A stretch of 63,108 nucleotides of DNA, counting the filler, from Pseudomonadota bacterium (lineage in GTDB: Bacteria > Bdellovibrionota_F > JAHFAK01 > JBDREC01), in assembly GCA_043820105.1 (NCBI GenBank). It is 9 parts of 9 records of this genome, joined end to end, with 100 filler letters (N's around TTAATTAATTAA, not from the genome) between each part and the next. Parts side by side here need not be neighbours in the genome. Positions count along the whole stretch, not along the records: positions 26,511 to 36,226 come from JBDREC010000074.1; 8 more parts are not named here. One strand, 5' to 3'. This document shows, piece by piece, positions 1,994 to 36,226 of this stretch. Made by a program: the position numbers and the translations under genes. The notes beneath the pieces were generated by a model, which saw nothing but the letters and a program-made list of their open reading frames with translations, ran no database searches and was not told where the DNA came from. The first letter of the stretch is position 1, and every line of letters starts with the position of its first letter.

Positions 1994-2000
1994 TCATTCA

Positions 2001-2072
2001 TGCCCCCAATAGGAATCGAACCTATAGCTGAGGATTAGGAATCCACTGTTTTATCCATTAAACTATGGGGGC
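2001..2072 (-). tRNA. tRNA-Arg(CCT), CCA not encoded
   Basis: GCCCCCA/TGGGGGC acceptor stem, TAGTTTAATGGATAAAAC D arm, GTGGA-TTCCTAA-TCCTC anticodon arm (one T:T mismatch), ATAGG-TTCGATT-CCTAT T arm. Confidence 0.93.
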
Positions 2073-2091
2073 ATTTAAATTTTCGAAAATT

Positions 2092-2241: not shown

Positions 2242-3375
2242 TTAAATCTGTGATTCTTTTTTAAAGTTGATAGGTATAACATTTTCATCAAACTTCTCTG
2301 GATCTTTTCCAAACTTTACCACATTCATCTTAGAGACAAGGTAATTTTTTTCCAAATGAATATATATTTTTGTCGTTGTTAATTCATGATGGCCAAGAAT
2401 CATTTGAAGATCACTGATATTACCTCCTTCTATAATGTAGTTTGTAGCAAATGTATGGCGGAGATCATGAAAGCAGATCTTTTTAACATTAGCTTTTTCA
2501 ATATCTTTGGTAAATATTTTTTGTGTAAATGTACTCGGAGAAGGAACCCTATCATTTTTATTGCCAAAGACTAATTCTTTTTTCCCAGCGTTTTGATTGT
2601 TAGCTTCTAGTAAAAGGTTATAAATCTCATTGTTAATACCAATGTAACGAATTTTGTGACTCTTGGTTGTATCTTTAATGGAATTTGTACATTGCTGAAA
2701 AGTTCTACAAACAGTTATTATATTGTTCTCAAAATCAATGGTATCCCATTTGAGTGCTAGCAATTCACCTTCTCGCATTCCGGTATTCAGCGCGACCATG
2801 TAAAGTAAAAAGTAATTTGAGTTTCTATTTGCTTCCAGAAATCTGTTTGCTTCGTCAATCTGCCAATAATCAATCTTTTTAGGTTCAACTCTTAGTAAAT
2901 CAACTGAAGTGACAGGATTGTATTTAACATATTTTTTCCGGTTTAAAGCGTAATTAAATATGGTTTTCATGATCGCCAAATGTTGATTTATAGAGGCATT
3001 AGATAGATTAGTATTCTTTTGTAGAATTACTACGTAATCATCAATCATTTCAGAAGTGATTTTACAAACATTAAATTCTCCAAATTCTGGTAAAATATAC
3101 TGTCTAAGCATTTGCTTATCTTTTCTTACACTGCTTTCAGACTTTTTAACTTCTGCATGTTTTGTGATCCATTGATCAGCCAATTCTATAAATTTGAGTT
3201 TTTTACCTAATTCGTACGAATTTTCATAATCTTCATTTTCTTTAGCTAATTTAGCTGCCCAAATAAAAATATCAGCTTTTCTTCGAAATGTATTACAATG
3301 TTTTTTATGGTTTAAGCAAAGTTCTACTTGAAACACTTTTCCAAATTTCTTTGTCATCCGTTCTCTAATATACAT
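2242..3375 (-). CDS. int: Tyrosine integrase (phage/island type), paralogue of 784..1923
   Basis: NTGMREGE, HDLRHTFAT, LGHH, TKIY motifs; shared KDKQxLRQY and NQHLAxMKTIFNYA segments. Confidence 0.95.
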   Translation of the reverse strand: MYIRERMTKKFGKVFQVELCLNHKKHCNTFRRKADIFIWAAKLAKENEDYENSYELGKKLKFIELADQWITKHAEVKKSESSVRKDKQMLRQYILPEFGEFNVCKITSEMIDDYVVILQKNTNLSNASINQHLAIMKTIFNYALNRKKYVKYNPVTSVDLLRVEPKKIDYWQIDEANRFLEANRNSNYFLLYMVALNTGMREGELLALKWDTIDFENNIITVCRTFQQCTNSIKDTTKSHKIRYIGINNEIYNLLLEANNQNAGKKELVFGNKNDRVPSPSTFTQKIFTKDIEKANVKKICFHDLRHTFATNYIIEGGNISDLQMILGHHELTTTKIYIHLEKNYLVSKMNVVKFGKDPEKFDENVIPINFKKESQI

Positions 3376-7806: not shown

Positions 7807-8178
7807 ATTTATCGCATAGCTTATTATCCTATATAAATGAAAAAATTAACATTTTTAAAATATTTTATTACCTAATTGGTGCATTCATTACATCCCCCCT
7901 TAATATAAATTAATAATTCTCACGTGTTCTAATGATTACAGTATGTTATTCGAAATTAGGTGGTATTTACTAGAGAAATAACTAGGGGGATACACATTTT
8001 TTACTGTTGTGAAATGTGTTTTGGATTAATGGGATTTAATAATTCTAATGAATTTTTTGTCATATACTTTGCCAAATAAAAAATCCTTTACGATTTCATT
8101 CAATATATCAAAAAAAACCAAAATAATAATCTAGTAATTCTACTATATTATAAGATTTCTTTAAAATAATTCACAATA

Positions 8179-22085: not shown

Positions 22086-22186
22086 TTGCACTCAAAAATG
22101 CACTCAAATTAACATAGTACTAACGCTAACGTTTTGTAATAATTATGTATTACTTTCACTAAAATATTTAAAGGAAAGGAAATTTC
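22086..22186 (+). repeat. Att-arm-like element homologous to 34541-34640
   Basis: TTGCACTCAAAAATGCACTCAAATTAAC...GTAATAATTATGTAT...AAAGGAAATTT aligns with TTGCACGCAAAAATGCACGCAAATTAAC...GTAATGATTAGGTAT...AAAGGAAATTT. Confidence 0.75.
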
Positions 22187-26410: not shown

Positions 26411-26589
26411 NNNNNNNNNNNNNNNNNNNNNNNNNNNNNNNNNNNNNNNNNNNNTTAATTAATTAANNNNNNNNNNNNNNNNNNNNNNNNNNNNNNNNNN
26501 NNNNNNNNNNATGTGTATTTTGAAATATTTTCTAAATCAGGTAGACCTGTAGAAGTTATTCAGATAAAAAGGACCGAAATTATGCATTC

Positions 26590-27306
26590 TTACTGGCTCT
26601 GCTTTTGCCGCTCCTTGAACCTCTTCCTCCATTTTTGATACTTATCTTTCATGATTTTACTTAAGCCTGCTTTTTTTTCATTTACCCAACTTGATTCACC
26701 AATAAAATATTTGCATTCTTCATGCAATCGTTCCTTGACCGCCTCCCAGACATCCATAAATGATTCAATCAGCTCCTGGTATTTTTTCTGTTTTTCTTTT
26801 GGAGTGGTGCCCAGGCCTTCATAAATTGGTGATGGAGTAACTAATGGATCCTCCTTACCTTCAGCATAATAAGCATAGGATGAAAACTTGTTCTGTGATG
26901 GATGTTTGACCATTCCTGCTTTAACCTGGTTTAGGTCAATGTAGGCAGCAACATTAACCATATCATCATGTCTTTCAAGCTGTTGAGACACAAATCTGTC
27001 AAGAAAAACCTGTCCCCGCCTTTTTTTTGCTTTATTGTAAGCCTTTGCAAAGATAGAATGAACCCTTCTGAAAAAGGCAGAAAAATCTTTGAGCAGACCA
27101 AGCTTCCCCTTCAGATGTGGATGCGAATCCATGAGATTATAATTATTTATTTGTACATTGTACTCATCTTTGTATTTGCATAGGAGGTCATAATAAAGCT
27201 TCTTAGCCCAAACTGGTTCCAGTGCCCAGTCATAGTTATGGAATCTAAGAGTAACATGAAAATAACAATTATCCTGCAAAATAGCAGATCTTGGAACAGA
27301 AGGCAT
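26590..27306 (-). CDS. REP-associated tyrosine transposase (RAYT, Y1_Tnp)
   Basis: YFHVTLR, YNLMDSHPHL (HUH), VFLDRF, YIDLNQVKAGMV, FSSY. Confidence 0.92.
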   Translation of the reverse strand: MPSVPRSAILQDNCYFHVTLRFHNYDWALEPVWAKKLYYDLLCKYKDEYNVQINNYNLMDSHPHLKGKLGLLKDFSAFFRRVHSIFAKAYNKAKKRRGQVFLDRFVSQQLERHDDMVNVAAYIDLNQVKAGMVKHPSQNKFSSYAYYAEGKEDPLVTPSPIYEGLGTTPKEKQKKYQELIESFMDVWEAVKERLHEECKYFIGESSWVNEKKAGLSKIMKDKYQKWRKRFKERQKQSQ

Positions 27307-27343
27307 AAATTAGCTTTAAAAAGTTGATGTGAAAAATTTTATA

Positions 27344-27360
27344 TACAAAAGTTATGCCAA
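27344..27360 (-). promoter_or_regulatory. Sigma54-like promoter upstream of the RAYT
   Basis: TTGGCATAACTTTTGTA (GG-N10-GT; imperfect -12). Confidence 0.45.
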
Positions 27361-27570
27361 AAAAGTAGGGTTGAATGAAATTAAGTGGTTGGGATGAAAA
27401 TATAGAATAAATACCGAAAAGCTTTCCAAAATCTAAACTTGGATTCTGGAATCTGGAAAGGTTTGCACCTCCGTACATAAGGTAAAGCGGGATATTATTT
27501 ATCTGATAATTTGAGAATATTTGGATATTCCTTTCTCATTTATTGTGGGACTTAGCAACTTGTAATATTA

Positions 27571-28446
27571 TCATAAATCCTCCATAACTTTTTTAGCTAC
27601 TATTTCCGCTCCAATTTCTTTACATGGCCAATCTTTACAATCTTTTAGCCAACGTCCTTCTTTTTGGCAGGGTTGGCATTCTAATCCTTTATTTATTATT
27701 TTGCTATATTTATGAAACCTTTCATCGTAATTTTTTAAAATTGAAGTTGCTGTGAATATAACTATATTATTAATCTCTAATGCATTGGCACAATGGTATA
27801 ATCCTGTGTCATTACTTAATAACATTTTGCTATTTTTTATTAAACCTAAACTGTCTAGAAGAGGTAATCCTGTTTTGTTCACTGTACCTGGAACATATTC
27901 TTCTTTTGTTCCAAGGGAACATACTTTGTAACCTTTAGCTTTTAAAATTGAAGCTACTTTATCATAATAAGGATAAGATTTTATTCCCCATTGTGATCGG
28001 CCTAAATAATTGTATCCATTACTTATGACAACATCATATTCCTCATCAACATAATTATAATTGCATTTACCATGCCATATGTAATTATCTTCTTTGACTC
28101 CTAAATCTTTTGCTATTTTCAGATATGTACTTATTTCTGAGGAAGTCATGCTGAGTGGGTGTACATCTGCTATCTGAGGTAACTTTATATGAGTTTTAAC
28201 ATATTTTTCCGTCCAAGAGGTAGTAACTACACCCTCATATTTATTAAAGTCGATGTTTTGTAACTCATGACCAATAAACATGTTATCTATGTAAGGTATA
28301 AGATTTTTGGGTATGGAGTATGATCCATAAGCGTGCCATATGTCCACACCAGAAAATTTTAGGTTCTCTTCTATTGTACGTAAAACAGGTATACACTGAA
28401 TGAAATTTCCTATGCCTTCACCTGTAACAAATAAAAGTCTTTTCAT
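27571..28446 (-). CDS. Glycosyltransferase family 9 (heptosyltransferase-like)
   Basis: EGIGNFIQCIP, LSNDTGLYHCANA, LECQPC. Confidence 0.88.
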   Translation of the reverse strand: MKRLLFVTGEGIGNFIQCIPVLRTIEENLKFSGVDIWHAYGSYSIPKNLIPYIDNMFIGHELQNIDFNKYEGVVTTSWTEKYVKTHIKLPQIADVHPLSMTSSEISTYLKIAKDLGVKEDNYIWHGKCNYNYVDEEYDVVISNGYNYLGRSQWGIKSYPYYDKVASILKAKGYKVCSLGTKEEYVPGTVNKTGLPLLDSLGLIKNSKMLLSNDTGLYHCANALEINNIVIFTATSILKNYDERFHKYSKIINKGLECQPCQKEGRWLKDCKDWPCKEIGAEIVAKKVMEDL

Positions 28447-28559
28447 ATCAAAGCCGTCCTGTGTTTTTTATTAATTAATCAGCTATGCTCTTTGAATCAG
28501 ATCTAGCCATTAACAAGTCCTTTTTAAAAAGCATATTATTAATTTCATATAATTGATAT

Positions 28560-29000
28560 CACTCGTGTCCGGTTAAAATCTAAAAAATAAAGGTTGAACC
28601 TATAAAGCTTAATAGCTAAGCTTATTGTTGATCAAACAAAACAATAGGTTCAACTGATATGCATCAAAATATTCTATTTCACAAACTTTTGCAACAAATT
28701 CCTAGACATAAATTTGAAAATTCTGTCAATCGATATGGGTCAGATCAATATGTTAAGAAATTTACTTCTTGTAAGCTATTTTAAATACTCTTTTTAGCTC
28801 AAATCAGAGGAGATGAAAGTTATCGTGATATAGTAACTGCTTTAAAAGCTAAATCTAAGAAATTATATCATATAGGTTTAGAAGCTGTTCCACGATCCAT
28901 ATTATCTGATGCTACTAATATTAGAGACTGTGATGTGTTTGAAGAATTATTCTATGAATGTTTAAAACGCTGCAAAGATCTTGCTCCAAGGTATAGATTT
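28560..29000 (+). mobile_element. IS4-family remnant: left IR plus truncated DUF4372-type transposase pseudogene (ATG 28659, internal TAA 28782)
   Basis: CACTCGTGTCCGGTTAAAATC IR-like end; MHQNILFHKLLQQIPRHKFE...YVKKFTS...*ILFLAQI...SYRDI...RSILSDA...VFEELF; no DDE domain. Confidence 0.8.
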
Positions 29001-29303
29001 TTTATTTTCAAGCTCCTCCTTTCGCTTTAATACTCTATTCGATTCTATGCATACTGCAATCAGGCTTCTTAAATCAAGCTCGTTTGAAGTTCCCTTCTTA
29101 TTATTTATCTGAAACTTCTTTTTCCAGTAAAGAAACTTTTTGTAATCAAGATTATTCCTTCTGTAATAGCTGGCTAAAGATTCTTTGGATTTTATGTTCG
29201 CCCTAACATGGTCTTTCCATATCTTTTCTCTTATGTCACCTGATTCATTGAGCCAATCCAAGGATTTTTGCTAAACTTTAAGGTTTTCAAATGGGAAAGG
29301 CAT
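28962..29303 (-). pseudogene. Chimeric remnant: four-helix-bundle N-terminus (with TAG) joined to an IS66 TnpA-like HTH
   Basis: AGGAG RBS + MPFPFENLKV*QKSLDW, then IWKDHVRA...SLASYYRRNNLDYKKFLYWKKKF. Confidence 0.5.
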
Positions 29304-29469
29304 GATTGTCTCCTAAATAAAATACTTTAATCTAGATTTTGATTTAAAAGAAACATGCCAATTTATTTGATTTTATTTCTTAATCTATTTTCTAAATTTT
29401 GGTGATTTGAGGAAAATAGATAATAGATCTAGAAAATAGAGGAAAATTTTGTCTGAAGCCAAAATTTTA

Positions 29470-29546
29470 TGGAGCTGATCGGGATTGAACCGACTACCTC
29501 TTGAATGCCATTCAAGAGGTAGGGGGTTCGATACCCCCCAGCTCCA
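29470..29546. repeat. Head-to-head fusion of two tRNA-Ala(GGC) 3' halves (att-like quasi-palindrome)
   Basis: Minus: CTCTTGAATGGCATTCAAGAGGTAGTCGGTTCAATCCCGATCAGCTCCA; plus: ...ATTCAAGAGGTAGGGGGTTCGATACCCCCCAGCTCCA; no D arm on either strand. Confidence 0.85.
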
Positions 29547-29595
29547 TTTTTCACTTATCATTACAACATGTTATATTTCGCTTTTTGTCTATTTA

Positions 29596-29625
29596 GAATT
29601 TGCACGCAAAAATGCACGCAAATTA
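29596..29625 (+). repeat. 30-bp arm-type repeat (2x TGCACGCAAA), copy 1
   Basis: GAATTTGCACGCAAAAATGCACGCAAATTA, identical to 34537-34566. Confidence 0.9.
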
Positions 29626-30336
29626 TTTGTGACATGGAGTTCCCTTAGGTTCTACGTCTACTATGCTCAAACCTTCCAAAAGTACTTCAGATTGAGAGTA
29701 TATTTTTTTCCTAAATTCAGAAAATTCAAAGTTAGAAACGGGACAAATAGAAAATAATGCCCTTTGAGTAACATGTCTTACAAAACCATCATTTTCTTTA
29801 CAAATGTATTCAGGCAAATATGAAACGCTAACTTCCAAAAGCTTAAACTTATATTCTTTATTATTTTCAAGTTTTTCTTTTAATTGTGCTTCGCTTAAAT
29901 TACCATAAACGGAATCTATTATGCTAAATGTTCCTAGAGAAGACATTACTTCTTCTAATGACAGAGTTCGCCAGAGAAATAATTCACAATTAGGATTAAT
30001 TTTATAACCTAATGTAGTACTATTGGCTATACAAGAAAATAACTCAGATAAGTATTTTTCTGGAATGTCTTTAAGTAAAACCTTCGATTGCATAGTTACA
30101 TACTGGCCATTTCTATACACTTCCCAATCATAGTTTAATTCTTCCTGATTTCTATAACATAATTTAGAGTCAGTAATAATATAAGAATCAAAAGGATAAT
30201 GATTATTCAAGCCAAGAAACATAATGTTCCCATTTTCAAGTTCTAAATAATACACATCGTCTACTGAAGCTGAAAAGTCTGCAAAAACTAAGTTTGAGCT
30301 TAATATAACTAATATAACGTAAAAATAAATTTTCAT
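29623..30336 (-). CDS. Secreted hypothetical protein
   Basis: AGGAG RBS, signal peptide ending VFA; no recognised domain. Confidence 0.7.
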   Translation of the reverse strand: MKIYFYVILVILSSNLVFADFSASVDDVYYLELENGNIMFLGLNNHYPFDSYIITDSKLCYRNQEELNYDWEVYRNGQYVTMQSKVLLKDIPEKYLSELFSCIANSTTLGYKINPNCELFLWRTLSLEEVMSSLGTFSIIDSVYGNLSEAQLKEKLENNKEYKFKLLEVSVSYLPEYICKENDGFVRHVTQRALFSICPVSNFEFSEFRKKIYSQSEVLLEGLSIVDVEPKGTPCHK

Positions 30337-30402
30337 TTTGAAGCTCCTAATTATTGTTAAATGATTAATTAATATGCATTTTAAAATTTGGAGTATTTTT
30401 AT

Positions 30403-31287
30403 TTAAAATAACTGATAAATGGTATGAGGATAATTCAACCATTCTTTGGTTTCAATTGCTTTTATTCTTAACTCATCTGCATTAATAATGCATTGGAATA
30501 GCTTTTCACGAGAACCTCCCTGTTCTTGACTATAAACTACATCCTTTTTGACACAATCATAAAGACTAAAAATCCCAAAGCCGAAAACATCTTCTGTTAT
30601 ATTTTTATTCTCGACTTGCTCCATATGAATTCTAAAACACTCCTGCAAATCATCTTCGAAATCATCCGACTTATATGCATTTTCATAGCAAGTCCTATGT
30701 TTTGAAAATGCTAAATCATATGAAGAGAGATTTTTTTCAAAAAGGTAAAGATATAATATCATGCTCACAATAACTAATCCCATGATTGTATAGGCAACAG
30801 GATTTGCATACAGTTCACTTCCCCAAATAAGCTCTTGTAAAACACCTAAAGCTATCCCTAACAAGGCATTATTTTTTTCATACTCTTTATTTGTTATTTG
30901 AAATGAATTTTCATAACCAAAATGTAAAATTATAGACAAAACAGAATCAATACTAAAATCTTTTAAAAGCACTATTTCCTTAAATAATGTCTCAATAATA
31001 CTTGAACAATCATTAACAAGCTTTCCGTTTAAATATATAAGAAACTTGTTTTCTTCAACTTTCACTGTATATTCTTTTTCGCCTTCAAAATACTGTGCTC
31101 TTTTATTATCAAAATCGAAAGAAACATTATAGAATGCATTTGCATATCCAATCAAATCATCATTTAATGATTTTATCTCGGCAAATGTATCAGCCTTACA
31201 AGCTTTGTTTGAAGTATCAGAAAAAGCATTAAAGCTGTGAGAAAAAAGAATTAAAGCAACCATGATATATATAGTAATATTTCGCAT
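30403..31287 (-). CDS. Secreted/membrane hypothetical protein
   Basis: Signal peptide plus internal hydrophobic hairpin; no recognised domain. Confidence 0.7.
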   Translation of the reverse strand: MRNITIYIMVALILFSHSFNAFSDTSNKACKADTFAEIKSLNDDLIGYANAFYNVSFDFDNKRAQYFEGEKEYTVKVEENKFLIYLNGKLVNDCSSIIETLFKEIVLLKDFSIDSVLSIILHFGYENSFQITNKEYEKNNALLGIALGVLQELIWGSELYANPVAYTIMGLVIVSMILYLYLFEKNLSSYDLAFSKHRTCYENAYKSDDFEDDLQECFRIHMEQVENKNITEDVFGFGIFSLYDCVKKDVVYSQEQGGSREKLFQCIINADELRIKAIETKEWLNYPHTIYQLF

Positions 31288-31309
31288 AACAAAAACCTTT
31301 CTTTTATTT

Positions 31310-32119
31310 TTATAATTCCAAGTATTTTTTTATCTTACTTATAGATTCATTTAGATATTTTTTTAATTCATCTTCTTTTAACTCTTTGTCATTATTGATT
31401 GTTATTACAGGGATTTGATATTGAGAAATTTTTAATGATCCAGTTCTAACATTTTTATCTTCTGAAACATTATACTTAGGAAAAAATATTTCTTCTTTGA
31501 ATACTGAATCCATAACCTCTTTTGGTACACATTGACCTGTTAATTTTGCTCTTGAATCGTTTCTTTTCAAGCGATTATTAAAGCTTGATGTAATATGAAG
31601 TATTGACAGATTGTCTACCTTAACTTTATTAATTAAATTTTTGATTGTATGTGTGTAAATCTTGTTTGCATCTAAATTAAAGCATTGCATAAAGGCTTGA
31701 TCATGCCCTCTTGCAAACTCAACTATATATTTTTTATTTGGATCAATGTTTTTTAGCAATCTTACAATTAATTCATCCCAAACAAGTGGATTTATTACTT
31801 CCATTGCCTGATCATTAATTTTTCTGCAATATTTAGCTTTTGGAAATTTAACACCATCTTTAAGTTCTTGCAGGTAATCTTCTGTTAGATCTTTTAAAAA
31901 AACTGAATACTCTTGAAAGTTTTCAAGATCTTTTTTTAATTTTTGATGATTATAAGCTTCAATTACTAGTCGCTCTAACTTGAAATATTCTAATAAAACA
32001 TCTAAATCATCAATTAACTCATAGCTTTGATGTTGCTTTATAAATTCGTTTTTTAATACACTCTTTCCCGCAGCTGACGGCCCTATTAATAAAATTATTT
32101 TTGATTTAAGACTTTTCAT
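31310..32119 (-). CDS. P-loop NTPase/nucleotide-kinase-like protein
   Basis: ILLIGPSAAGKS, IVEFARG, RLKRNDSR lid-like motif; start likely 32119. Confidence 0.7.
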   Translation of the reverse strand: MKSLKSKIILLIGPSAAGKSVLKNEFIKQHQSYELIDDLDVLLEYFKLERLVIEAYNHQKLKKDLENFQEYSVFLKDLTEDYLQELKDGVKFPKAKYCRKINDQAMEVINPLVWDELIVRLLKNIDPNKKYIVEFARGHDQAFMQCFNLDANKIYTHTIKNLINKVKVDNLSILHITSSFNNRLKRNDSRAKLTGQCVPKEVMDSVFKEEIFFPKYNVSEDKNVRTGSLKISQYQIPVITINNDKELKEDELKKYLNESISKIKKYLEL

Positions 32120-32241
32120 AGCATTCCCTTTATAAATTTTATTCCCAACACAGACACAAATAGCACATGGTGTCATATAAGTAAAATTATATTTACTTAT
32201 ATTTATTATAATGATATATTATATCTTGATTTATAATAAAA

Positions 32242-33156
32242 TTGCAGGATTTTCAAATGCTAGATATAAACCTTATAAAAGTGTTCATGGAAGTAACTAA
32301 AACTGGCAACATATTAAGAGCTTCTAAAAACTTAAGAATTACCCAACCTGGAGTAAGTCAAAAAATAAAACAGCTAGAGAGTCATTTAGGTGAATCATTA
32401 TTTATAAGAAAAAGATCAGGCATGGAATTAAACCATGCTGGAAATGAGTTTTTACTTATTTGCAATAACATAAAAAACGAATTAGATAGGCTCGATAATT
32501 GGATAATAAACAAAAAACCAGAAGTTTCAGGACATATTCATATAACAACTGTCTCCAGTTTTATCACCTATGTATTTCCAAAATTTTTAAAAATCTTCTT
32601 TGAAAAATATCCTGAAGCTAAATTTACTGTAAAAGATGCAAGGATTTCAGAGCATGTTGAAGAAAATCTTATCAAGGGAAAATCTGATATTGGGATTATT
32701 ATTGGAAGATGCAAAAAGGATTCATTGAAAATTCAAAAACTATCTGAAAATCATATTTTAATGGTATGTTCAAAAGACTACTTTCTTGCTAAAAAGAAAA
32801 ATATAACAAGGGACGACCTTGATAAAGCAAGGATCTTTTCCCATGCAGAAGCTCATTCTAGAACTAGCAAATTTATAGCAAAGGAGCTTGGTTACCCTTC
32901 TGAAAAAGATTTTGGTGATATTTTCTTAAATGACATGGAAGCATGCAAAGCTCATGTTTTAGAAGGCTTGGGTATCGCATTTGTAGCCAAAATGTATATT
33001 AAAGATGAATTAAAAAAAGGAAAGCTTGTGGCTTTGCCTGGATTTAATATGAATAGACCAGCTTATATTGTTTCACGAAATGAAAAATATGAATCACCAT
33101 TATTAAAAATTTTTAAAAAAGAGTTTGTTGATTATTGCAAGGACTTAGATTTTTAA
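32242..33156 (+). CDS. LysR-family transcriptional regulator
   Basis: ASKNLRITQPGVSQKIKQLESHLGESLFIR HTH plus substrate-binding domain; divergent from the P-loop gene. Confidence 0.95.
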   Translation: MQDFQMLDINLIKVFMEVTKTGNILRASKNLRITQPGVSQKIKQLESHLGESLFIRKRSGMELNHAGNEFLLICNNIKNELDRLDNWIINKKPEVSGHIHITTVSSFITYVFPKFLKIFFEKYPEAKFTVKDARISEHVEENLIKGKSDIGIIIGRCKKDSLKIQKLSENHILMVCSKDYFLAKKKNITRDDLDKARIFSHAEAHSRTSKFIAKELGYPSEKDFGDIFLNDMEACKAHVLEGLGIAFVAKMYIKDELKKGKLVALPGFNMNRPAYIVSRNEKYESPLLKIFKKEFVDYCKDLDF

Positions 33157-33900
33157 TTTAATATTAATTTCCTTAAAGAGATGCTCAAGGGTTTCAGGTA
33201 AATCACTATATCTTTTCTGGTGCTTTTTGTAGGCTTTTTCCATATCTTCATTTATCCAACTTGTTTCTACAATATTATTAATTCCCTTTTTATTTAATAT
33301 TTCTTTTGTTGCTTTTATTGGAATTAAATCAGATTTAATAATTCTGTAGATATCATCGAAATCCTTAATTCTTGTATTTCCTGATTTAAATTTATAGCAG
33401 GTATCGATTTTATCAGATAAAATATTTTCCAAAGATTGAGCATTAATTTTGAATTTTTCTTCATCCAAATCTAATAAAATTTGTTCATATTCAGTTTTTA
33501 ATTTATAAACTATGTCAATTTCAAATTCATTTTCTGCTCCATCATCTGTTTTATAAGCAATTTTCAATTTAGCAGCTTTTAAGTCTTCTTTTTCAAACTC
33601 TAAATAATCTAAAATCTTATAATTTATTCCTTTATCAACTTTGCATGCTTTTTTTAATTTTTTTAATATATCATCTTTATTATTTAGTGATCTTGTAACA
33701 AGATCTAAATCCACTGTAGCTCTTGGTGTTCTTATATAATACCAAATTAGATTTCCACCTTTAAAAATAAAATCTTCTGAAACTTTATTGATTGATTTTA
33801 TATATGTTAAAATTACATATTTTAAAAAGCCAGAAGGACCCTTTAAACCATTTTGCTTTATGAAATTTCTTGCTCTTATAACAAATCGCTTTTCACTCAT
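33145..33900 (-). CDS. abiEii: Type IV TA toxin, AbiEii-family nucleotidyltransferase
   Basis: FIFKGG, RATVDLD, ENILSDK, TRIKDFDDI; overlaps the antitoxin stop. Confidence 0.9.
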   Translation of the reverse strand: MSEKRFVIRARNFIKQNGLKGPSGFLKYVILTYIKSINKVSEDFIFKGGNLIWYYIRTPRATVDLDLVTRSLNNKDDILKKLKKACKVDKGINYKILDYLEFEKEDLKAAKLKIAYKTDDGAENEFEIDIVYKLKTEYEQILLDLDEEKFKINAQSLENILSDKIDTCYKFKSGNTRIKDFDDIYRIIKSDLIPIKATKEILNKKGINNIVETSWINEDMEKAYKKHQKRYSDLPETLEHLFKEINIKLKI

Positions 33901-34465
33901 CAGCCAGCTCCTGCTTTATTATTCTCAATACATTTGTCTTTAAAATCTTATCATACTTAGCAATCTCATCGTATTTAGGTTTATATTTTTTCAAATATCT
34001 TTTAATTGCTTTATAACAAATTGCTTCACTATAATAACGATAAATATCAGACAAGATACGCTCAGGATTATATATTTTGACATTTTCCCCTGAAATTTTA
34101 ATTTTATCAATCCCAATTAAGTATTTTTTTGAAATTCTTCTAACATTTAAAATACTATTTCTAATATTTTTGTTATTGGGAATATCCACATCAACACAAT
34201 CAATATTCTCATCGCTTAATCCATATACTTTTGCTGCAGCTAGTCCTGAAATTGCCGCATCTTTGTAATATTTAGCAACAACAATTAATAAACCTGTAAA
34301 AATATCCAATGATGGCAAGCTATAAAATCCAATTCCAAGCCTTTGAATTTCTCCTCTTTCTTCAAGACGAACTAATAACATTCTGTTTTTAGATATTTTT
34401 TGCAATTCACTTGCTGAGGCAACTAAATTCTTTTTTATATAAAGTACTATTTTATCTTTTTTCAT
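33893..34465 (-). CDS. abiEi: Type IV TA antitoxin, AbiEi family
   Basis: RGEIQRLGIGFY wHTH, ISGLAAAKVYGLSD, IYNPERILSD. Confidence 0.9.
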   Translation of the reverse strand: MKKDKIVLYIKKNLVASASELQKISKNRMLLVRLEERGEIQRLGIGFYSLPSLDIFTGLLIVVAKYYKDAAISGLAAAKVYGLSDENIDCVDVDIPNNKNIRNSILNVRRISKKYLIGIDKIKISGENVKIYNPERILSDIYRYYSEAICYKAIKRYLKKYKPKYDEIAKYDKILKTNVLRIIKQELADE

Positions 34466-34503
34466 AATGTTACTATTTTGTCATATTTGGCATATTATGT
34501 CAA
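34466..34503 (-). promoter_or_regulatory. Sigma70 promoter of abiE (near-leaderless) overlapped by short repeats
   Basis: TTGACA-N17-CAAAAT with TGn extension, 9 nt before ATG; repeated TG(A/C)CA(T/A)A units. Confidence 0.6.
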
Positions 34504-34536
34504 GTCTGTAACGCATCTAAATATAGATTCAATATT

Positions 34537-34566
34537 GAATTTGCACGCAAAAATGCACGCAAATTA
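34537..34566 (+). repeat. 30-bp arm-type repeat, copy 2
   Basis: Identical to 29596-29625. Confidence 0.9.
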
Positions 34567-34702
34567 ACGTCGCACTTACGTTAAGTTTGCGTAATGATTA
34601 GGTATGGTTTTTACATTTTTTCACAAGAAAAGGAAATTTGATCTTTCGCAACATCCTGTTATCACTTGGATTTTGGGTTAATAATAGTTTATAGTTTAGT
34701 TA

Positions 34703-34754
34703 AATGGCATTCAAGAGGTAGGAGGGAATAATCCCGATCAGCTCCATAAAATTT
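34703..34754 (+). repeat. Displaced tRNA-Ala 3' fragment (attR-like), degenerate T arm
   Basis: AATGGCATTCAAGAGGTAG (19 bp) and AATCCCGATCAGCTCCATAAAATTT (25 bp) are exact reverse complements of 29494-29512 and 29462-29486. Confidence 0.85.
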
Positions 34755-34834
34755 AAACTGACAGTTAAAATTTTAGCACTAGTTCTAGTTCTAGTATTTC
34801 AGATACTTCCGTAGTAAAAACTATTTTCATCATT

Positions 34835-35719
34835 TCATTTTTCTTCGTAATAATAAGAGTAGTCGATTCCTTTCATATACATTTCGCGACTTTTGATTTT
34901 TTCGCTTAGGGCCTTTTTGAGCAGATTTTTTATTTTTCTGCTATTTGTTGGGCTCTGTTTCATGGCATTTAAATAATCGTTTTTGGCTATTTTGCTCCAG
35001 TTAACACATTTTTTTAGTTGTTTTTTCAAAATTAAATCAAGCCAAATACGTGCACTTCGACCATTACCTTCCATAAATGGGTGGGCAATGTTCATTTCTA
35101 TATATTTATCAGAAATTTGCTCAAATGTATCTTCTGGCATTAGTTCAATCTGTTTAAGCGTATTTTCTAAATGCTTTGCCATTGCAAATTGAAACCCACC
35201 TTTTGAAATATTTTTTTGTCTAATTTGACCAGCAAATTCATACAAGCCTCCAAACAAATATGCATGAATTTGTTGCAAGCCATTAATTGTACCAACTTCA
35301 ATGGCTCCAATAAATGAACTTTCGAATAAGGCATATGCTTTTGTTTTGCTTTTTCCGTCTATAGATTCATCGCTAAATGTAAACCATTCAATAAATCTAT
35401 TGGCTTTTGTTCCTGGAAATGTTTTGCCTAAGGCTATAATGCCACTGTAGTCGAGCATATCTGATAATCGTTTTTTCCCATCAGGTGCTAATAGTTTCAA
35501 CTGGGTAGTAGCACTAACCACTTGGCAATTTTCCTTTTTTAATTTAGATTTTAGGTATTTCCAATAATTCCGAGTTTTGCTGTAATCGTCTTGATCGGTA
35601 AGGACTGCAACGATATCAAGCACTGAAAACCACCATTTGCTTTTTTCATCGTCCCAAACAGCACGAACTTCTCGATCGTCAAAAAAACGAATTGAAATTT
35701 TATTTATATTATTGGGCAT
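34835..35719 (-). CDS. fic: Fic-domain protein with Bro-N-like N-terminus
   Basis: VRAVWD...[10 protein letters not shown]-terminus; [12 protein letters not shown] Fic motif. Confidence 0.92.
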
Positions 35720-35863
35720 ATTCTTTTTCCTTAAACGTTAAAAGGTTTTCTCTGTAATATTTAAACCTTTATTTATTCATTTAGTCATTTTTCTATTTAA
35801 ATAAATGATATTGTAGCATTACATAATATTATAGTATTATCGACTTTTATCAATAAAAAACAC

Positions 35864-36226
35864 ATGTTTTATAAGAAATTTTACAGTCGTATTACTAATA
35901 CTCCACCTTTTAAAATAAGTAAGCACCTCCGTACTACTTTTTCCTTTTTATTAGTAGCCCTTTCTGGAATTTTAATGACCTCAACAGCTTATTTTGGATT
36001 TAAAGCATTAATAATCTTAAGTTTTATAGCAGTTCCATCCATTACAATTTTAGGCTTTTACTCAGTATCTTTTGCAGTTTCATCAATTGGTGGCTTTCAT
36101 GAACTTCTTAAGATAGAACCTCAAAATTCAATTTTATTTGTTACAGCTGTATCAATGTGTATCGGCTCTTTTATATCAGGTGGAACTTTAACACCTGATT
36201 TTATTAGATTTGCAAAAAGCTCAAAA
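35864..36226 (+). pseudogene. Cytosine permease (CodB-like) internal fragment, 5'-truncated
   Basis: LMTSTAYFGFKAL...IAVP...CIGSFISGGTLTPDFIRFAK matches the middle of CodB; N-terminal helices are absent. Confidence 0.65.

Follow-up and report, generated by a model that had tools for sequence, protein, structure and literature searches.

Two opposed tRNA-Ala(GGC) 3′ halves at the end of an integrase-free cassette: a probable product of inverted recombination at a near-symmetric anticodon loop

A 77-bp palindromic structure at positions 29470-29546 (centre 29508) of the DNA analysed here consists of two tRNA-Ala(GGC) 3′ halves that share a single 7-bp anticodon loop. On sequence grounds we consider it very probably to be a junction made by a tyrosine integrase that recombined in inverted alignment at the loop sequence ATGGCAT. 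The structure is a DNA junction, a scar and potential attachment site, and not a tRNA gene. The window, by which we mean the whole stretch of 63,108 nucleotides, consists of contigs, separated by spacers, of a single metagenome-assembled genome, G000, which at 92.9% completeness spans 3.8 Mb in 113 contigs with 32.1% G+C, and the palindrome lies on contig C74 (window 26511-36226). Its parts, in window coordinates, are:

29443 to 29469, minus strand: A/T-rich hairpin after the left arm (from comparison of the 3′ flanks of all host tRNAs)
29470 to 29504, minus strand: left arm, a tRNA-Ala(GGC) 3′ half (positions 39-73), with the T stem paired at 5/5 positions
29505 to 29511, no strand: shared anticodon loop, the 7-bp overlap region, reading GGC on the minus and GCC on the plus strand
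29512 to 29546, plus strand: right arm, a tRNA-Ala 3′ half in variant form whose T stem is compensated (from sequence comparison)

An earlier note on this DNA, made from the sequence alone, had placed the structure at 29462 to 29546; the tRNA-like part is the shorter span given above, and the earlier start takes in eight bases of flank. The 13-bp arms that it reported around GCC are present at 29494-29506 and 29510-29522. Its reading of two tRNA-Ala 3′ halves joined at the anticodon is confirmed by comparison with the sole intact tRNA-Ala(GGC) gene of the host (C50:100-172, on a different contig from the palindrome), which the minus-strand arm matches at 46 of 47 bases. The T arm does differ between the strands, the plus-strand arm being a variant whose T stem is fully re-paired. 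Each strand ends in CCA, as had been noted; these bases are acceptor stem plus discriminator base rather than an encoded CCA tail, and the intact host gene terminates in a CCA formed in the same way. The two arms agree at 28 of 35 positions (7/35 differ). The left arm is most likely a displaced host half (B′) or a host-derived copy, and the hairpin that follows it is of a kind found after several host tRNA genes (Glu-CTC, Met-CAT). The right arm we read as the tRNA-restoring end (P′) of the adjoining cassette. The intact gene on C50 faces a contig end 100 bp away, and that end overlaps no other contig; the left part of C74 might be the chromosomal sequence that follows it.

The surroundings of host tRNA genes carry further repeats. 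Many of these genes are flanked by short tandem 6-7-base repeats of several types, and one class of A/T-rich 3′ hairpin is common to six of them. To the left of the palindrome lie a RAYT-like transposase (window 26590-27306), with further copies on C108, C103, C34 and C68, and a lone IS66 tnpA (window 28962-29261).

The palindrome forms the left end of a 5.2-kb cassette. The features of the cassette and its neighbourhood are:

22087 to 22108, plus strand: third 10-mer repeat pair, on contig C73, with no adjacent tRNA core
29505 to 34710, no strand: cassette without integrase, 5.2 kb, 27.5% G+C against 32.1% for the genome
29596 to 29625, plus strand: 30-bp perfect repeat with two tandem 10-mers (29601-29610, 29613-29622), P′ side
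29623 to 32176, minus strand: cargo, ORFs of 237 and 294 aa without a family, and one of 288 aa whose only match is a weak P-loop hit
32242 to 33156, plus strand: cargo, LysR-family regulator (Pfam PF00126, PF03466)
33145 to 34465, minus strand: cargo, AbiEi/AbiEii type IV toxin-antitoxin (abortive-infection) pair (Pfam, PADLOC)
34537 to 34566, plus strand: second copy of the 30-bp repeat (10-mers 34542-34551, 34554-34563), P side
34704 to 34746, plus strand: third tRNA-Ala(GGC) 3′ half, its T arm decayed, forming the right-hand cassette junction
34747 to 34795, plus strand: hairpin and short repeats of the kind found after the intact tRNA-Ala(GGC) and tRNA-Val(GAC) genes
34835 to 35719, minus strand: Bro-N/Fic protein beyond the right junction

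The anatomy of the cassette is att-like and favours the reading as an integrase product: it is flanked by co-oriented tRNA 3′ halves. The loops at 29505 and 34704 lie 5,199 bp apart, and identity between the two ends begins at the anticodon loop. The central base of the loop differs between them (GCC against GGC), which would not be expected from ordinary duplication of a target. When the cassette is removed in silico, the near-palindrome of about 95 bp described in the earlier note is indeed obtained, with 38 of 44 columns identical after the loop, the 8-base flank included. Measured inwards from the loops, the 30-bp repeats lie at 90 bp on the left and at 140 bp on the right, spanning about 290 bp together; their position, form and spacing suggest that they are arm-type sites for an integrase. 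The short repeats after the third half were also considered as arm sites and were rejected because they occur 3′ of tRNA-Val(GAC) and of the intact Ala gene as well. None of the 11 PF00589 hits in the genome places a tyrosine integrase on C74, and none adjoins any Ala(GGC) sequence; the paired 10-mer of the cassette had no match in viral contigs. On C73, window 22087-22159 resembles the P-side repeats of the cassette (77% over 74 bp) and adjoins two ORFs without a Pfam family; this repeat pair is probably the relic end of a sister cassette. The Bro-N/Fic protein is probably mobile-type cargo of a neighbouring cassette. Additionally, C92 carries a copy of the LysR gene at 77%, and C107 carries one at 96% of the permease fragment at the contig end (35864-36226), together with a tRNA-Leu(TAG) 3′ fragment.

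For tyrosine integrases that use tRNA genes, the 7-bp anticodon loop is the overlap region and the anticodon stem provides the inverted core sites; these enzymes cut on either side of the loop, whose asymmetry alone gives direction (PMC8371274, PMC2817482). In the case of IntDOT, orientation depends solely on homology at the two ends of the overlap, and at engineered sites a symmetric overlap yields both orientations in vitro (PMC2817482). A natural anticodon loop would stand in the place of that engineered overlap here. As a point against, IntDOT is unusually tolerant of overlap mismatch, other tyrosine recombinases requiring identity there. ATGGCAT is self-complementary at 6/7 positions, including three end bases, differs from its own reverse complement at one base, and is the most self-complementary of 43 host tRNA loops (a list that includes one doubtful call). 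The targets of IntDOT are not known to include tRNA loops.

The sequence anatomy, the symmetry of the loop, the recurrence of such junctions elsewhere and one locus with both junctions are observed; which enzyme acted, whether the repeats serve as arm sites, what the target was and in which order the steps came are inferred, and we would reconstruct them as follows. At ATGGCAT, since this loop differs from its reverse complement at one base, direction may have been lost once, and the element end that carries the replacement 3′ half would then have become linked to a 3′ half already present, where the normal partner is a 5′ half. The live gene is intact, and beyond it the G000 assembly contains no orphan tRNA-Ala 5′ half. 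It is therefore unlikely to have been the target, and a displaced 3′ half at the outer end of an array of islands is the more probable one; recombination at that outer end would probably be why the live gene survived. The reciprocal junction (a 5′ half or P arm joined to an inverted P arm) was not found in the 93%-complete, 113-contig assembly and is present at the analogous locus L030, described below. Within the reading of inverted recombination, two orders of events may be envisaged. The cassette and its right-hand neighbour may have stacked normally and then been inverted or re-inserted as one block, an order to which we give slightly better than even credence. The other, in which an empty palindrome arose first and took up the 5.2-kb cassette later, serving as the orientation-independent att site that the earlier note proposed, falls a little short of even; a single inversion of a pre-built two-cassette block predicts the same sequence as this order.

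It might be supposed that reads folding back at the anticodon hairpin had joined two tRNA-Ala loci at small k, making the palindrome an artefact of assembly or library preparation. A pattern for any two back-to-back tRNA 3′ halves was run across 185,579 species genomes; because the pattern was strict, the scan sees part of the class only. Seventeen sites were returned, six of them fold-back-like and 11 not. The six (L020, L021, L025, L026, L029 and L036) have arms identical at 34-35 of 35 positions, copied flanks and centres no more than 163 bp from a contig end; they look like fold-back artefacts, and one of them (L020) has the same ATGGCAT loop. Fold-back chimeras at tRNA anticodon stems thus share with our palindrome a 3′ half mirrored about the loop, whereas the palindrome shows none of their marks (identical arms, copied flanks, contig-end position). 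Among the remaining sites, L023, L024, L030 and L034 join halves of the same tRNA with distinct flanks, although two of them (L023 and L034), no further than 135 bp from a contig end, are uncertain. The others (L022, L027, L028, L031, L032, L033 and L035, each at 8001-8053) join two different tRNA-like halves; two of these are in isolate genomes, some of the arms are decayed, and L032 is near a contig end. A metagenome scan for Ala(GGC) palindromes gave a single match, cut by a contig end, and a relaxed viral scan gave six loci, of which four were already known and two lacked tRNA-like stems. Inverted tRNA-half junctions are rare, and they recur also in unrelated bacteria.

When ARAGORN was run on L020, L023, L025, L026, L021 and L036, the mirrored contig-end halves were called as overlapping tRNA pairs on opposite strands (for example Gly-GCC/Ala-GGC, Leu-AAG/Lys-CTT and Val-AAC/Asn-GTT). 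In assembled metagenomes, such halves might give rise to spurious tRNAs with rare anticodons.

An artefact would be helped by the 29-bp near-perfect core of the palindrome, which could connect paths at small k. Spanning reads had been proposed as a check in the earlier note. Two public DNA runs, X1 and X2, share a small fraction of sequence words with this DNA; they contain, in scattered pieces at a depth of 2-3, a near-identical strain that covers either side of the junction, and a contig from X2 matches 34715-34926 without difference; among the matches listed from the two runs, no piece spans 29505-29511. As no listed piece bridges the palindrome, the case for a real junction rests on comparison. 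The arms diverge 11 bases from the loop and their flanks are unrelated. The site is mid-contig, 2,998 bp from the nearest contig end. An artefact should also have left both displaced 5′ halves in the assembly, where none was found beyond the intact gene. Furthermore, the left arm and the third half share an exact block of 25 bp whose alleles are absent from the intact gene, and a read artefact would not create them. Contig-end overlaps in G000 reach 141 bases, from which a multi-k short-read assembly is deduced; by comparison, the assembly has no other exact copy of any part of 29455-29560 longer than 30 bases, which favours a real junction. We therefore regard an artefact as improbable. A search for the empty locus returned tRNA-level or short matches only from 40 other genomes, and two genomes of the same order gave tRNA matches only, so that no close relative shows the empty locus; no synteny was found for the GT9 protein, which had one weak match in three other genomes.

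Loops elsewhere also favour inverted recombination. Each of the five further sites that join halves of one tRNA and have different flanks shows at least two self-complementary loop-end bases, compared with 10 of 43 loops in the host (Fisher p = 0.002). This comparison involves five sites, two of them near contig ends, and a background of one genome. No enrichment was seen at the sites of two different tRNAs (3/7, p = 0.36), and the fold-back-like sites did not differ from background (3/6).

The most complete parallel is L030, which is 446 kb from a contig end. Here the 5′ half of tRNA-Thr(CGT) stops at the loop and continues into non-tRNA sequence; at a distance of 6,453 bp the 3′ half is found joined to a second Thr 3′ half in inverted orientation. 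Compared with the intact gene of a relative, the 5′ half matches at 38/38 bases and the 3′ half at 37/38; tRNA-Thr(CGT) is intact in all seven relative loci examined (nine were fetched, L101 and L105 being outside the count). Besides an integrase fragment and a HipA-family gene, the insert contains a spare tRNA-Thr(CGT) gene that is complete. Thus, L030 shows both of the junctions predicted by inverted integration. The element (L030:8024-14515) is inverted in a fur-adjacent tRNA-Thr(CGT), and the replacement tRNA-Thr(CGT), which has a similar upstream promoter motif, lies some 190 bp from the opposite end of the element, which might normally insert in inverted orientation and bring a spare gene with it. 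Taken with the self-complementarity of the loop, the GCC/GGC ends of the cassette and the behaviour of IntDOT, these junctions support the proposal of the earlier note that the palindrome arose by inverted recombination at a near-symmetric loop.

Other loci resemble parts of this arrangement. At L024 an Ala(GGC) palindrome adjoins a mobilisable relaxase/primase element, and no other copy of the tRNA-Ala(GGC) gene was found in that assembly; its contig did not yield the far junction, and host-side synteny found no confirmation in relatives. E. coli survives loss of tRNA-Ala(GGC) at a growth cost (PMC11480407). At L027 two unlike halves are fused, one Arg(ACG)-like and the other Val(CAC)-like, and both have flanks of element type that also occur in relatives. 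L028 holds a 2.2-kb segment with a Lys half at one end and an inverted Thr half plus paired repeats at the other.

Mirrored sites also occur in phage. In L018 (IMG/VR; 2985-3065) the att region has two tRNA-Gly-like 3′ halves back to back, directly upstream of the integrase; the mirror, perfect over 18 bp, extends through the T arm, both T arms are present, and the record has no other copy of the tRNA. In L016 (613-659) and L017 (3001-3047) the P side of the att mirrors a tRNA-Met 3′ half as far as the T loop and adjoins the integrase gene. These records lend some support to an attachment site that is two-faced by design, with a mirrored tRNA 3′ half on its P arm, in which case integration would have been normal and the palindrome would be an ordinary attR. 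In our cassette, however, the P end is not mirrored, and the flank of the left arm resembles host tRNA flanks rather than element arms. The mirrored phage sites could themselves derive from an earlier inverted event. We judge this origin to be very improbable, and continue to favour inverted recombination.

The earlier note had described a pseudo-tRNA that folds into a cloverleaf on both strands. A cloverleaf can be drawn on each, but the favoured fold is a long hairpin: the cloverleaf is at -30.2 kcal/mol and the hairpin at -50.1/-46.2 kcal/mol, a gap of 16-20 kcal/mol, and the ensemble probability of the cloverleaf is below 1e-12. The hairpin fold has a z score of -7.6 to -9.6, and 0 of 200 shuffles folded equally well. 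ARAGORN, a check that had been suggested, called no tRNA at the palindrome, and a search of the whole window with Rfam did not detect it. A local Rfam search scored the minus strand at 34.8 bits (cut-off 29) with the D arm unmatched, which upholds the reported lack of a D arm. No promoter-like site is aimed into the palindrome; the two found are downstream and at chance level. The term pseudo-tRNA is thus overstated for what is a DNA junction. An expressed tRNA-like RNA readable from either strand, serving as a tRNA mimic or decoy, would agree with the drawable cloverleaves, the paired T stems and the local Rfam score, yet is extremely improbable given the absent D arm, the dominance of the hairpin, the lack of an inward promoter-like site and the absence of the exact sequence from the genome and metagenome scans (its own genome being possibly outside the scan).

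The earlier note also saw in the palindrome an echo of two-sided tRNA use in contig 1. The link is loose. There, an intact tRNA-Arg(CCT) (window 2000-2073) lies between two integrases, and displaced 5′ and 3′ halves of it are found on C16 and C1, respectively; the site requires no inversion. It fits the known islands with 5′ fragments and 3′ fragments and is a separate phenomenon; islands with 5′ fragments make up 159 of 3,919 in Islander (PMC4383910). A displaced tRNA-Ser(GGA) 5′ half was observed on C7.

Comparison with known systems places the cassette close to, and outside, the islands catalogued by Islander. As in Islander tDNA islands with the anticodon-centred site 'A', tRNA 3′ fragments mark the ends, identity runs from the anticodon loop, which is a known crossover subsite, and the bounded segment (5,199 bp) is within 2-200 kb; the att region of about 290 bp with paired repeats is close to the published attP of about 250 bp (PMC4383910). 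Unlike these islands, the cassette has no intact co-oriented tDNA at its end, the left end being two opposed 3′ halves, and no tyrosine integrase lies inside or overlaps it. Fragments in opposite orientation are rejected by Islander, which uses them as a measure of false positives (PMC4383910). We did not file the cassette as an Islander island because the restored co-oriented gene and an integrase of its own are both missing.

The cassette also resembles CIME-like elements, which arise by tandem accretion of att-flanked cassettes without a recombinase of their own and are excised or mobilised by the integrase of a neighbouring element. The cassette is a candidate for such an element, since it is small, flanked by att sites, loaded with defence genes and devoid of a recombinase; CIME-like arrays run head-to-tail, whereas the array here contains an inverted junction. 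No description of natural back-to-back tRNA 3′ halves was found in the literature, and coverage of subscription papers was sparse, making this weak evidence of absence; PMC12884075, PMC6536676, PMC2884959 and bioRxiv 10.1101/2020.11.02.365908 yielded nothing that bears on such halves. The biochemistry of inverted recombination at a symmetric overlap is already known, and natural cases at tRNA genes, on that weak evidence, are apparently undescribed.

The single locus is a scar, and the interest resides in the recurring class. A broader proposal, which we put forward tentatively and hold to be rather unlikely in its full extent, is that symmetric att sites outside working tRNA genes arise repeatedly in nature through inverted recombination at anticodon loops with symmetric ends. 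Such sites would take cassettes either way round, let islands flip and yield a two-faced attP (as in L018) on composite excision; the Arg/Val and Lys/Thr junctions of L027 and L028 would represent integrases changing their target tRNA, and the class would be mostly invisible to catalogues filtered by orientation. On the main reading itself, the opposite-orientation fragments that give Islander its estimate of false positives include some true events. Integration into tRNA genes has been described as one-directional and gene-restoring, and the junctions reported here would show a natural failure of direction at loops with self-complementary ends. They suggest a testable sequence rule for which tRNA targets permit inverted products, together with a simple signature by which the events may be detected. 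Such a rule would bear on the inversion of islands, on the acquisition of new tRNA targets by integrases and, in genome engineering, on which tRNA attB sites are chosen.
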